This document shows positions 39,701 through 42,700 of a stretch of 64,000 nucleotides of DNA, one piece after another (the stretch's first letter is position 1; every line of letters begins with the position of its first letter). The stretch lies in the NCBI RefSeq assembly GCF_051903065.1, contig NZ_CP178439.1. One strand, given 5' to 3'. Position numbers: made by a program. This DNA is from Escherichia coli (lineage in GTDB: Bacteria > Pseudomonadota > Gammaproteobacteria > Enterobacterales > Enterobacteriaceae).

Positions 39701-42700
39701 CTGTTCGTAGCCAATCACCCACTGCTCCCCTGCCCGGCCCAGCTTGCGGTTGGCTTCATCGCGAGCGGCATAATCGAACTTTCGCGGTAGGCGTTGCCGT
39801 AGAGATGCCGGGGTACGCACAAGCACTTCACGGGCGGGTGGTTCTACCAAAGCCGCTCGGTAGGTTTTGTCACCCGGAAGTTTTACCTCCTCCAGGGCAT
39901 CGACAAGAGCGCCGACCGTCTGCTGATGTTCCAGAACGTAGGCGTGTACGGATTTACGCAGCAGCAGTTGGCTGTTGCCGCGTGGCTTGTAGCCGTTGAT
40001 ATAGGGCAGGCCCAGGGCATCGAGTACGGCGCTAATGTTCTGGTGCTTGAGCTCGACTGAAGACTTGCTGCGACCGTTCAGCAGTTGGCGCAGTGCCTGG
40101 TTGTGCTCGGACTTGTTGTACGGCTCCCCAGCCGCCTCGGCACGCAGCATGTCGAAATAGTCTTCGACCGTGGCCAGGACCTCTTCTTCGGACCAGTCTT
40201 CGCCGATGCGAATGATGCGAAACCCGAGCCGCGTCAGCGCCGGAACGACGGTCGCCTCGCCACTGGAGAAGCTGTCAGCAGTGAGCGGGCCCTGCTCGGG
40301 AAATTGCTTGCCGAAGGCCACACCGGCGATGGCCTTGGAATCGCAATCGGTGCCGGTCTTCGGATCACGTACCAGGAAGTCGCGGGACTTGCCGTAGCCG
40401 TGGCGCGCCAGGAATTTCGTGCGGCCCAGTTGCACGAACTCATCGATGGCAGCCTGCACGGCGGCGGGGCTTCGAAGCTGGGAGAGTTGAGACACAGGGT
40501 CCTTCCTTACTGTCATGGTGTGCCGGGAACCGCCGAGCCACGAGATTATGAGTAGCCCCTGAACAGAAACGTCACGATAAAAGCCGTGAACGCCACCAGG
40601 CCCATTAAATCCCTTGCGTATTTGCAGCCCGTGCTGTCCAAACCTGTACCAGGTCCGATCAACACGCTCCAACCATTGAGGTACGAAAACACCGCCTGAC
40701 CGAACAAAAAATGCGTGATAGCCGCCGCAGCCATGACGCCGGAATCGTCAGACAGGCTGTAGCTGTTGACCATTGCCCTGTACGCCTGCATCTGAAATGG
40801 CTATTGCCCTGATGGGAGCCGGCTTTTCAGCCACCGACACCAGCGATGCCGTCAATATTCTTTACCCGATAACCATGACCGTACAAGCTAACAAGGCCTG
40901 GCAAGCCAGCGGACTTAAAAAGTCTTTTTTTCTACCATCCCACAAAAAAGTTCGTGGTGGAGAAAAGATAAGCTATGCAAGGCTTTAGGAGACGTGGTTT
41001 TTCAGGATGACGAAGAACGATTCGGCGCTAGGTGCAACATAGGTGCATCGCACGAGCGCTAGGAACGGCGAAAAAAGGCGGACGTGGCGAAATCGGTAGA
41101 CGCAGCAGACTTTAAAATTGGAGTGCCCGCGGGGAAATCCGCGGAGTAGAACCGCTCAAAGTCGGGGAACGCTAACGGGCAATACCCTAAGCCAATCCCG
41201 AGCCAAGCCCCTTCGGGGGAAGGTGTAGAGACTGGACGGGCGGCGCCTAAAGCCTTCGGGCAATGGCGAAGGGACAGTCCAGACCACGAACGTCATCAGA
41301 CGGCGGCGAAAGTCGAGGTGGTACGAAAATCTGCTTCTCTGTGAGAGTACGGGTTCGAGTCCCGTCGTCCGCACCACAAAGCCAAACATCCCTGCGATGA
41401 TCGACCTCTGGGCGTTTGGTCGTGAGCCCGCCACCCTCGCGCTACGCTTTGCGCAGGCGTCGAAGGCGATCAGGTGCGCCCATCGATTCCGTCGAGCACC
41501 ATCGCTGCGAGTTCATCGCTGGTGTGTGCACCACTATCGAGAACACGGGTTGTGCATGGAAGCCGTTCCCTTGCGGCCAAGCATCGGGCGACATTCGCTA
41601 ATCGCCACTCTCGAATCTCCGCATTTCGATTCGGGTCAGGATGCATGGTCTGGTTCGCGATCCGGTGACGCAATAGGTCCTCGTTGAGCGTCAGAAAGAT
41701 GTGCAGCAGCTGATCGTCGATCCGCCTTACCCCGTCGAGTATCTCAGTCAGATAGTCCGGGTGCACGAGCGTCATTGGGATGATGATGTCCTGCGAGTAA
41801 TTCCTTCGAATCTCCCTGACCGCCGCGATCGTAAGTCCCCTCCACAAGGGGAGATCCTGATAGTCTCCGCTCGCTGGCATGGGGACCGTTTCTTTCACCA
41901 CGAACCCGATTTCCTCGGGGTCAAAGATCAGCGATTTGGAACGCCGATCGCGCAGCCGCTTAGCGAGCGTCGTCTTTCCGGCGCCGAAAGGTCCGTTGAT
42001 CCAGATTATCATTGTCGACGGCCTCTAACCTGAAGGCTCGCAAGAGCGCTCGACGGCCTCGTGCGGAGGCACGATCGGAGTGGTTCCGAAATGCTTCTCA
42101 AGATAGGTGACGCCGAACGTCACGATGTCCTGCGCGTCGAACAGGTAGCACTGAGCAAAGCCCACGACACCTTCTCGATGGCGACCGAGCTTCACGTAAG
42201 CATTTGCTATAGTTTCAACCGCATCCGGCTTTCCTTCGATAGCAAAGCAATCGAGAATGCCGTTTGAATCGTAATCCGATGCCGTTTTCCAGGCGACTTC
42301 ACCGTCTCTTCCAAGCATCGGCATCTCATACGTCACCCACCGTTTGTTGGGGATATCGGCAACCGCCTCGGCGTAGTGCAATGCGGTAACGGAGTTTAGC
42401 GGCGCACCCAACAGCAGGGCCTTCCCGCCAAGGCGAACGAACCGCTCGACGGGCGATCCTTCCCCCAAGGCGTGACCGAGTTCGTGAGGCTCCGTCAGCG
42501 TTTCAGCCAGCGGACCAACCGCGACCATCGATGCATCGGGGTGCGCGCTGCGCCGCGCGCCGGGGGCTTGAACCAGAAATTGATTCAGCAGGCCGAACCC
42601 ACGGTAAGTCCCGGCTGTTGCGGGATCGAACGGCAGCCAGGTACGGCGGGCTTCGTCATCCAGCCGAGCGCCATTCAGAGTCTCCTCGTAGGGTGATCGG

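Follow-up and report, generated by a model that had tools for sequence, protein, structure and literature searches.

The stretch analysed here (the window) comprises 64,000 nucleotides of Escherichia coli contig NZ_CP178439.1 (assembly GCF_051903065.1) and carries an aac(3)-II resistance module, in which an aac(3)-IId gene and a tmrB-like gene lie beside a tRNA-Leu(UAA) gene at 41078-41376 that is split by a predicted group I intron (Table 1). This region is very probably a genuine and structurally intact intron-bearing tRNA-Leu(UAA) gene, carried as a passenger in a captured fragment on plasmids. The gene belongs to a known family, but its genetic context is unexpected and very widespread.

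Removal of positions 41113-41325 and analysis of the joined exons (41078-41112 and 41326-41376) with ARAGORN returned an 86-nt class II tRNA-Leu(taa), with the exon junction directly after the first anticodon base (position 34). The cloverleaf has an acceptor stem of 7 bp, a D stem of 3 bp, a long variable arm, G18G19, the T loop TTCGAGT, the discriminator base A73 and an encoded CCA. The spliced junction is predicted to read ...GCAGACTT joined to AAAATCTGC..., and the same predicted exon-exon junction, set out as a read target, is ...GCAGCAGACTT joined to AAAATCTGCTTC... Compared with E. coli tRNA-Leu, the spliced tRNA is 85% identical over the first 41 nt (D region) and 73.6% identical overall. 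On the unspliced 64-kb window, default ARAGORN made zero tRNA calls anywhere; with introns allowed it found the same gene ends, but set the intron at 38/39 and reported a 'stop' anticodon. A tRNA-Arg(tct) label for the gene was dropped because the splice-site search behind it had inherited this misplacement, and the splice-site rule adopted was a U before the intron, a G at its end, Leu-UAA and a junction after position 34. A 25-nt probe of the 3' exon occurs once in the window (0 expected), and the full 299 nt can be aligned over their whole length with some 100 intron-bearing tRNA-Leu(UAA) genes of other bacteria.

Judged by its sequence and pairing, the 213-nt insert belongs to the group I introns, subgroup IC3 (Azoarcus/Anabaena type). 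The P1-P9 model was derived by hand, and the window intron has a standard pair at every proposed position; a minimum-free-energy fold independently gives P1, P2, P4-P6, P8, P9a and P9b. The element CCGAGCCAAGCCCC at 41198-41211 corresponds to the 3' strand of P4 plus P6. The guanine-cytosine (GC) content of the intron is about 60%. Both GAAA loops (41134-41137 and 41308-41311) are conserved, and the receptor-like internal loops, CCUAAAG/CAAUGG in P8 and GCUAAC/CUAAGC in P5, are variants of the 11-nt motif. The Azoarcus intron, which we take to carry a near-identical GCCGAGCCAAGC and GAAGGUGUAGAGACU.GACGG core, is presumably likewise compact (about 200 nt, no open reading frame) with GAAA tetraloops in P2 and P9. 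Its tetraloop-receptor contacts, L2-P8 and L9-P5, presumably use internal loops of the CCUAAG/UAUGG type in P8 and P5, of which the motifs of the window are variants, and it presumably differs in host tRNA (Ile CAU) and insertion site (36/37). A preliminary description of this stretch had read from the sequence a class II tRNA with a UAA anticodon, a 213-nt insert between anticodon positions 34 and 35, a terminal G (41325), the CCGAGCCAAGCCCC element and a location inside the aac(3)-II/tmrB module. The ARAGORN result on the joined exons bears out the first two, direct reading confirmed the G and the element, and the location agrees with the RefSeq annotation of the identical plasmid region.

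Relatives were collected with the core pattern GAGCCAAGC-N(2-32)-GAAGGTGNAGAGACTNGACGG, scanned over one genome per species. At least 120 loci matched, mostly in Alpha- and Betaproteobacteria, and the other matches listed include some Microbacterium, Acidobacteria, Eremiobacterota, candidate phyla and cyanobacteria; about 55 of the at least 120 are tRNA-Leu(UAA) genes split at 34/35. Two alignments were made, one of 16 sequences (the closest genome relatives among the matches listed) and one of 48 sequences from Alpha- and Betaproteobacteria (including Burkholderia), Acidobacteria, Eremiobacterota, one Firmicute metagenome-assembled genome (MAG) and five cyanobacteria. Standard pairs fill 97.7% of the cells in the smaller set, against 30-45% with partners slid by 1-3 columns, and 32 of 82 pairs show changes on both sides; in the larger set the corresponding values are 97.9%, 31-43% and 45 of 69 pairs. 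Shuffling 500 times never reached the observed values in the 16-sequence set, nor any of the measures in the 48-sequence set (0/500 each).

In the 48-sequence alignment, the acceptor, D, anticodon, variable and T stems of the tRNA are 96-100% paired and covary. Within the intron, four of the six P3 pairs covary, P7 is 100% paired with G-C, A-U or C-G as its fifth pair, and P4 exchanges G-C for A-U between proteobacteria and cyanobacteria. The pair U41112·G41121 is UG in 48/48 sequences, and G41325 is invariant in 48/48. From the plasmid copy to the cyanobacteria, the core AAGGUG.AGAGACU.GACGG, AAGG.A.AGUCC and terminal G do not vary, and the alignment with the introns of Thermosynechococcus, Aliterella, Crocosphaera, Zarconia and Symploca contains 98 invariant columns. 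The plasmid copy keeps all family-invariant core nucleotides; it has a compensatory U-A for C-G in P9a relative to its nearest relatives and two compensatory double changes in P2 relative to the more distant locus L120 (chromosomal loci are denoted by L-numbers). Support by a covariance model, on which the preliminary description had made the gene depend, was present next to this strong covariation: RF00028 matched 41103-41295 with 36.8 bits (E 7.9e-8) in a permissive scan of 40950-41500 (551 nt).

The preliminary description had placed introns at 34/35 mainly in cyanobacteria and plastids, a picture that is out of date: they are common in Alpha- and Betaproteobacteria, Acidobacteria and Eremiobacterota. 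A 2026 survey gives 333 intron-bearing tRNAs from 18 phyla in 4,934 complete genomes, counts 34/35 as one of the principal sites of insertion for Pseudomonadota and Cyanobacteriota, and ties this position to tRNA-Leu (PMC13011429). Since such introns are reported there in Pseudomonadota, the kind is already known, and the relatives from the core-pattern scan fall within the surveyed Pseudomonadota population; the supplementary text of the survey, as far as accessible, mentions neither plasmids nor Enterobacterales nor Sphingomonadales (PMC13011429). With the cyanobacterial tRNA-Leu introns, the window intron has in common the host tRNA, the 34/35 site, the terminal G, the P1 pairing (C-U-U/G-A-G with U·G at the splice site) and the P3-P9 core, in which J6/7-P7 and J8/7-P7 are identical; it aligns column for column with five cyanobacterial members. 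It differs from them in GC content (they are AT-rich), in its short, UUCG-capped P6 in place of a longer insertion in the aligned members, in the closing pair of P7 (G-C instead of C-G) and in the RF00028 score (71-84 bits in three cyanobacterial members). The setting differs as well, conjugative resistance plasmids of Enterobacteriaceae as opposed to the chromosome or plastid genome of the known members. The alphaproteobacterial tRNA-Arg(CCU) introns (Agrobacterium, and BbgpI of Bartonella bacilliformis) are also of group I and also overlooked by standard annotation; their insertion site differs from 34/35. The Bartonella tRNA-Arg(CCU) gene is unannotated, and tRNAscan-SE detects it only after intron removal, as ARAGORN does the window tRNA; its intron splices in vivo and, by self-splicing, in vitro (PMC7717549), whereas splicing of the window intron in tRNA-Leu(UAA) is predicted.

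No feature is annotated beneath the tRNA and intron in any RefSeq row inspected, which bears out the supposition of the preliminary description that the gene is not annotated in aac(3)-II contexts. The literature found on aacC2-tmrB units mentions neither a tRNA nor a group I intron, and a literature search turned up no paper linking tmrB with a group I intron. A whole-window Rfam scan at gathering thresholds returned the IS10 RNA-OUT and an integron attI/leader only. According to the survey, tRNA group I introns of Patescibacteria likewise escape standard annotation (PMC13011429).

A 351-nt region spanning the gene was found in 1,280 PLSDB plasmids, in 1,274 of them at ≥99% identity, with Escherichia, Klebsiella, Salmonella, Acinetobacter, Enterobacter and others as hosts. 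It is carried by 635 of 5,426 complete E. coli genomes, in 588 plasmid and 82 chromosomal places. Genes of the aac(3)-II type were found in 2,340 plasmids, 1,550 of which match at ≥99% (IId allele); the tRNA is kept in about 82% of the aac(3)-IId plasmids, and about 18% are without it at ≥99% identity (1,274 vs 1,550). A 96.6% variant of the module, in which tmrB is interrupted by an IS91-like element, has no tRNA. Independent plasmid captures of the locus were searched for and a single version only was found; the fragment was captured once.

At least three sources contributed to the mosaic that forms the aac(3)-II module. On the left, the chromosomal fragment has a sharp edge: homology to the metagenomic and MAG tRNA loci L150, L161, L145, L153, L159 and L173 begins at 40907-40911, and left of 40907 there is zero homology to the chromosomal tRNA loci. 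At its right edge the fragment abuts the terminal repeat at 42921, CTGATGAATCCCC, which we take to be the end of IS10. The hairpin GACTTAAAAAGTC and T-run at the left end are invariant in the relatives, yet fall below the terminator thresholds of the tool used. The DUF3883 gene on the left is 83.8% identical at the DNA level to a Stutzerimonas contig, limited to 40494-39396. A shared origin of this flank and the tRNA was ruled out, as the flank is Stutzerimonas/Pseudomonas-like and its homology ends at 40494. In Stutzerimonas and Pseudomonas, the DUF3883 homologues follow a 1,729-aa DEAD/UvrD helicase, in what looks like a defence locus. A 30-nt inverted repeat (40882-40911/43107-43136) was considered as a pair of transposon ends and rejected as chance, because its right arm falls within what is left of the IS10 transposase and no more than a 10-mer matches. 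We propose that the fragment 40907-42920, after its single capture from an alphaproteobacterium, spread inside the IS26-bounded mosaic; the tRNA gene is most likely a plasmid passenger with no role in resistance.

Table 1. Features of the aac(3)-II module and of the intron-split tRNA-Leu(UAA) gene (positions in the window)
Feature	Position	Strand	Remarks
DUF3883/NOV_C gene	39368..40495	-	Stutzerimonas/Pseudomonas-like, protein identity 87-88%; 3' end cut by IS26
IS26 inverted repeats	39381-39394 and 43150-43163		Pair I4; bound the module
Mosaic segment	40495-40906		Always co-travels with the module
Chromosomal fragment	40907-42920 (2,014 bp)		tRNA leader, tRNA, tmrB, aac(3)-IId
Left end of fragment	40907..40936	+	Remnant of a pseudo tRNA-Leu 5' half (only ..GGACTT AAAA..), then hairpin GACTTAAAAAGTC and T-run, terminator-like
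Native upstream spacer	40937..41077	+	Aligns with the spacer of L173, L150, L159, L145
Exon 1	41078..41112	+	Acceptor 5' strand, D arm, anticodon stem 5' strand, C32-U33-U34; ARAGORN
Group I intron (predicted)	41113..41325	+	IC3-like, 213 nt, no open reading frame; RF00028, covariation
P1	41110-41114/41119-41123	+	U41112·G41121 at 5' splice site
P2	41127-41133/41138-41144	+	L2 GAAA 41134-41137
P3	41152-41157/41238-41243	+	
P4	41162-41167/41196-41201	+	
P5	41171-41172/41191-41192	+	
P5a	41177-41179/41185-41187	+	
P6	41202-41204/41222-41224	+	
P6a	41208-41211/41216-41219	+	UUCG cap
P7	41230-41234/41275-41279	+	
P8	41245-41247/41265-41267	+	
P8a	41252-41254/41259-41261	+	UUCG cap
P9	41284-41287/41318-41321	+	
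P9a	41291-41294/41299-41302	+	
P9b	41304-41307/41312-41315	+	Loop GAAA 41308-41311
Terminal (omega) G	41325	+	
Exon 2	41326..41376	+	A35-A36, anticodon stem 3' strand, long variable arm, T arm, acceptor 3' strand, A73, CCA; ARAGORN
Spacer between convergent tRNA and tmrB	41377..41469		L131/L132 colinear across it
tmrB-like AAA/P-loop kinase gene	41470..42012	-	'AAA family ATPase' in RefSeq annotation of identical region
aac(3)-IId, aminoglycoside 3-N-acetyltransferase gene	42025..42885	-	Annotation in 100% identical records
Truncated IS10 end	42921..43149	+	Terminal repeat CTGATGAATCCCC from 42921; RefSeq: incomplete IS4-family transposase
RNA-OUT	42966-43035	-	RF00240, 98.8 bits; points into aac(3)-IId

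The donor of the fragment was most likely an alphaproteobacterium of the Hyphomicrobiales, to judge from its relatives. Exon 1 is 100% identical to that of L141, L145, L150, L157 and L159, and exon 2 to that of L141, L145, L150, L156, L157 and L159. The nearest tRNA loci (L150/L161, L145, L159, L153, L157 and L141) have identical exons and introns 93-95% identical to that of the plasmid. They have the upstream spacer of about 170 nt in common; L173 is 89.5% identical over 40911-41376. At the tRNA-only chromosomal loci, homology ends at or within a few bases of 41376, extending to 41390 in L156. The contig of L159 is 92.7% identical to Afipia (Oligotropha) carboxidovorans OM5, with synteny from 263 nt 3' of the tRNA, and OM5 is without the tRNA locus at the syntenic site. 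L173 and L174 stem from GCA_051009155.1 and GCA_973634135.1, and the L173 MAG is labelled Tsuneonella suprasediminis (Sphingomonadales); the label or the binning looks wrong, as L173 is syntenic with the Oligotropha-like L159 at 84-86% identity.

The homologues of TmrB are alphaproteobacterial; at the gene level they are 88% identical in Sinorhizobium-syntenic contigs and 81% in S. meliloti. A chromosomal pair of an aac(3)-like gene and tmrB is 86% identical over 42919-41472, on contigs that are syntenic with S. meliloti and have flanks about 87% identical to it; S. meliloti itself (L125/L126) has tmrB alone at the site of the pair. In L122-L124 (5127-6564), L130 and L133, the aac(3)-II-like gene overlaps tmrB, with 84-86% identity to the plasmid genes. 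Homology in the Sinorhizobium-like contigs ends at the tmrB stop codon. In L131/L132 (80% identical), it runs from tmrB through the spacer and exon 2 to P9 of the intron and then ends; by our own count from the alignment, the part comprising exon 2 and P9 is nearly identical to the plasmid. As L131/L132 keep tmrB, spacer, exon 2 and P9 colinear, the order tRNA-tmrB-aac(3) exists outside plasmids. When the at least 120 loci with related introns were compared with the plasmid module, only the tRNA matched, with no synteny of tmrB, aac(3) or DUF3883. A scan of metagenomes for the exon 2 variant of the L131 type gave zero matches; a looser exon 2 pattern gave 37 loci.

The tRNA had also been suggested as a phylogenetic marker for the origin of aac(3)-II and tmrB. 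It does point to Alphaproteobacteria, most likely Hyphomicrobiales; as a marker it is coarse and names no species. Together with the Sinorhizobium-type aac(3)-like/tmrB pairs, which hint at where aac(3)-II has its natural reservoir, it indicates an alphaproteobacterial donor and defines the captured 2,014 bp exactly. A curated list of confirmed recent origins contains, for aminoglycosides, only APH(3')-VI and AAC(6')-Ih (PMC7782503). The origin of aac(3)-IId/tmrB is absent from it, and a co-mobilised RNA gene beside them, which evolves slowly and whose structure can be checked, supplies a second, independent marker.

Partial copies of the tRNA were observed around several of these loci. An intronless 5' half of tRNA-Leu(UAA) lies about 170 nt upstream in L145, L159, L150, L161, L153, L141, L138 and L173, running from the acceptor to the anticodon loop CTTAAAA and followed by the hairpin GACTTAAAAAGTC, the T-run and the conserved spacer. 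The half-tRNA is decaying while hairpin and T-run are invariant, and the plasmid keeps the hairpin end only (40907-40936). Copies of the intron-bearing tRNA that are truncated at the 5' side are present at L131:4544-4735 and L132:818-1009 (from P9, beside tmrB/aac(3) homologues) and at L156:12590-12857, which starts at P2 and has 14 nt of the plasmid downstream flank in common. The truncated copies suggest a hot spot of recombination or insertion at this locus.

If the gene is transcribed, the intron of the pre-tRNA would fold into P1-P9, and the internal guide GAG (41121-41123) would pair with C-U-U of the exon, so that the U41112·G41121 pair marks the 5' splice site. An exogenous guanosine, docked in P7, would attack this site, the terminal G (41325) would then occupy the same P7 pocket, and the freed exon 1 would attack the 3' splice site to yield the 86-nt tRNA-Leu(UAA) and a free intron. 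We infer guanosine-dependent self-splicing because the intron is homologous to that of the tRNA-Leu of Nostoc sp. PCC 7120, which self-splices according to the survey (PMC13011429). The spacer that precedes the gene contains a conserved repeated motif, CTAGGTGCAacATAGGTGCA (41028-41047), and may act as a promoter or in regulation. At these positions, about 30-50 nt upstream of the tRNA, the direct repeat TAGGTGCA-N3-TAGGTGCA was seen in all close chromosomal relatives, and it could bind a regulator or form a promoter element of an unusual kind. On the other side of the module, the truncated IS10 end precedes the start codon of aac(3)-IId by 35 bp; since RNA-OUT points into the gene, the outward promoter of IS10 may drive aac(3)-IId and tmrB.

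A number of observations weigh against an intact alphaproteobacterial gene that was captured in one piece and may still function. The RF00028 match lies below the gathering score of 50 and is absent from the default whole-window scan, and the folding energy is unexceptional (z = -1.31). No donor genome near-identical across 40907-42920 was found, and the nearest relatives of the tRNA are Oligotropha-like while the nearest aac(3)/tmrB pairs are Sinorhizobium-like, that is, of different lineages. There is no sigma-70 consensus promoter or terminator in 40700-41700 (best candidate 7/12 positions), the -10-like hexamer 12 nt upstream reads TAGGAA in the plasmid compared with TAGAAT in L173 and GAGAAT in L150, L159 and L145, and any transcript that left IS10 and crossed aac(3)-IId and tmrB would read the tRNA gene in antisense. 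The low Rfam score and the blank result of default ARAGORN would also suit a chance resemblance or a degenerate pseudogene, to which we give practically no credence: against it stand the end-to-end alignment with about 100 homologues and the intactness of every invariant core position and helix, and it was already ruled out by the pairing and covariation results. Applied to alphaproteobacterial chromosomal tRNA-Leu introns (L020, L121, L173), RF00028 gave 39.1 and 37.6 bits and left one unreported, whereas three cyanobacterial tRNA-Leu introns (L064, L042, L115) passed with 71-84 bits. As the alphaproteobacterial homologues also score low, the sub-threshold score is a trait of the clade and no sign of decay; the GC-rich proteobacterial introns tested fall under the gathering score, so Rfam-based annotation would miss the clade. 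The folding z-score is uninformative because the sequence is so GC-rich, and folding energy alone was discarded as a discriminator.

The other readings take the sequence as intact and differ in what it does on plasmids and how it came there. Transcription of the plasmid copy from the co-captured native upstream region, with self-splicing in E. coli, Klebsiella and Salmonella, is conceivable, though we hold it to be somewhat doubtful. We regard as evenly poised the case for a silent relic, which is neither transcribed nor productively spliced in Enterobacteriaceae and survives only through its recent capture and its place between two IS26 copies. The missing sigma-70 consensus, a -10-like hexamer weaker than that of the relatives and the likely antisense transcription from the aac(3)-IId/tmrB side all fit such a relic; the near-identity of the 1,274 plasmids leaves too little time for decay or selection to show, and the tRNA is dispensable, since about 18% of the aac(3)-IId plasmids and the 96.6% variant module are without it. 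It is countered by the native upstream region of 171 nt that came with the gene, and alphaproteobacterial housekeeping promoters are often weakly active in E. coli. Moreover, tRNA introns of this type self-splice protein-free in vitro, that of Nostoc according to the survey (PMC13011429) and that of Bartonella (PMC7717549). A benefit of an expressed and spliced extra tRNA-Leu(UAA) to enteric hosts or to the plasmid, in UUA/UUG decoding in AT-rich acquired genes or as a buffer against tRNA-targeting toxins, strikes us as very unlikely, and any adaptive value of the plasmid tRNA as improbable. A73, the D region near that of E. coli tRNA-Leu and the retention in 82% of aac(3)-IId plasmids would agree with a benefit; on the other hand, E. 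coli already has tRNA-Leu genes, linkage inside the IS26 unit explains the retention, modules without the tRNA spread too and the sigma-70 scan found no promoter upstream of the tRNA. It is also possible, although we think it rather unlikely, that the tRNA-Leu(UAA) was a recombination hot spot of the donor lineage and was taken along when an adjacent aac(3)-II/tmrB islet was excised, which is compatible with the passenger reading and would supply a reason for it. Such a landmark would account for the partial copies in relatives (the upstream 5' half, L156 from P2, L131/L132 from P9 beside tmrB), for the left junction of the plasmid fragment at 40907, within the anticodon-arm part of the pseudo 5' half, and for the empty syntenic site in OM5, but no integrase adjoins the L159 locus, the window has no duplicated tRNA end and no direct repeats around the module, and no tRNA is found close to the aac(3)/tmrB loci of the Sinorhizobium type. 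An integrative element with the intron-split tRNA as a target-immune replacement was considered and not adopted, because L159 has neither an integrase nor a second 3' half nearby and OM5 is simply without the locus.

The gene exposes a blind spot of annotation: a complete tRNA gene and a putative ribozyme are unannotated across the 1,280 PLSDB plasmids and the 635 of 5,426 E. coli genomes. Were it transcribed and spliced, the strains behind roughly one in nine of the complete E. coli genomes would produce a group I ribozyme and a tRNA-Leu(UAA) of alphaproteobacterial descent, along with intron RNA in free or circular form. Among clinical Enterobacteriaceae, no other group I intron outside phages would then be as widespread, and standard annotation would overlook all of this. 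Expression would provide a natural example of such a ribozyme that stems from a distant lineage and functions in enteric pathogens.

Long introns are passed over by tRNA finders, and what is annotated on the conserved non-coding leader is a 'hypothetical protein'. RefSeq places two short hypothetical proteins left of the gene, WP_000951934.1 at 40797-40988 (+) and WP_000248278.1 at 40546-40773 (-), the first of which is probably spurious because it overlaps the conserved hairpin, the T-run and the non-coding tRNA leader. Far from the module, the Rfam AAC_AAD_leader/attI model matched 62959-63034 (+) with 74.3 bits, and a class 1 integron is therefore present elsewhere in the window.

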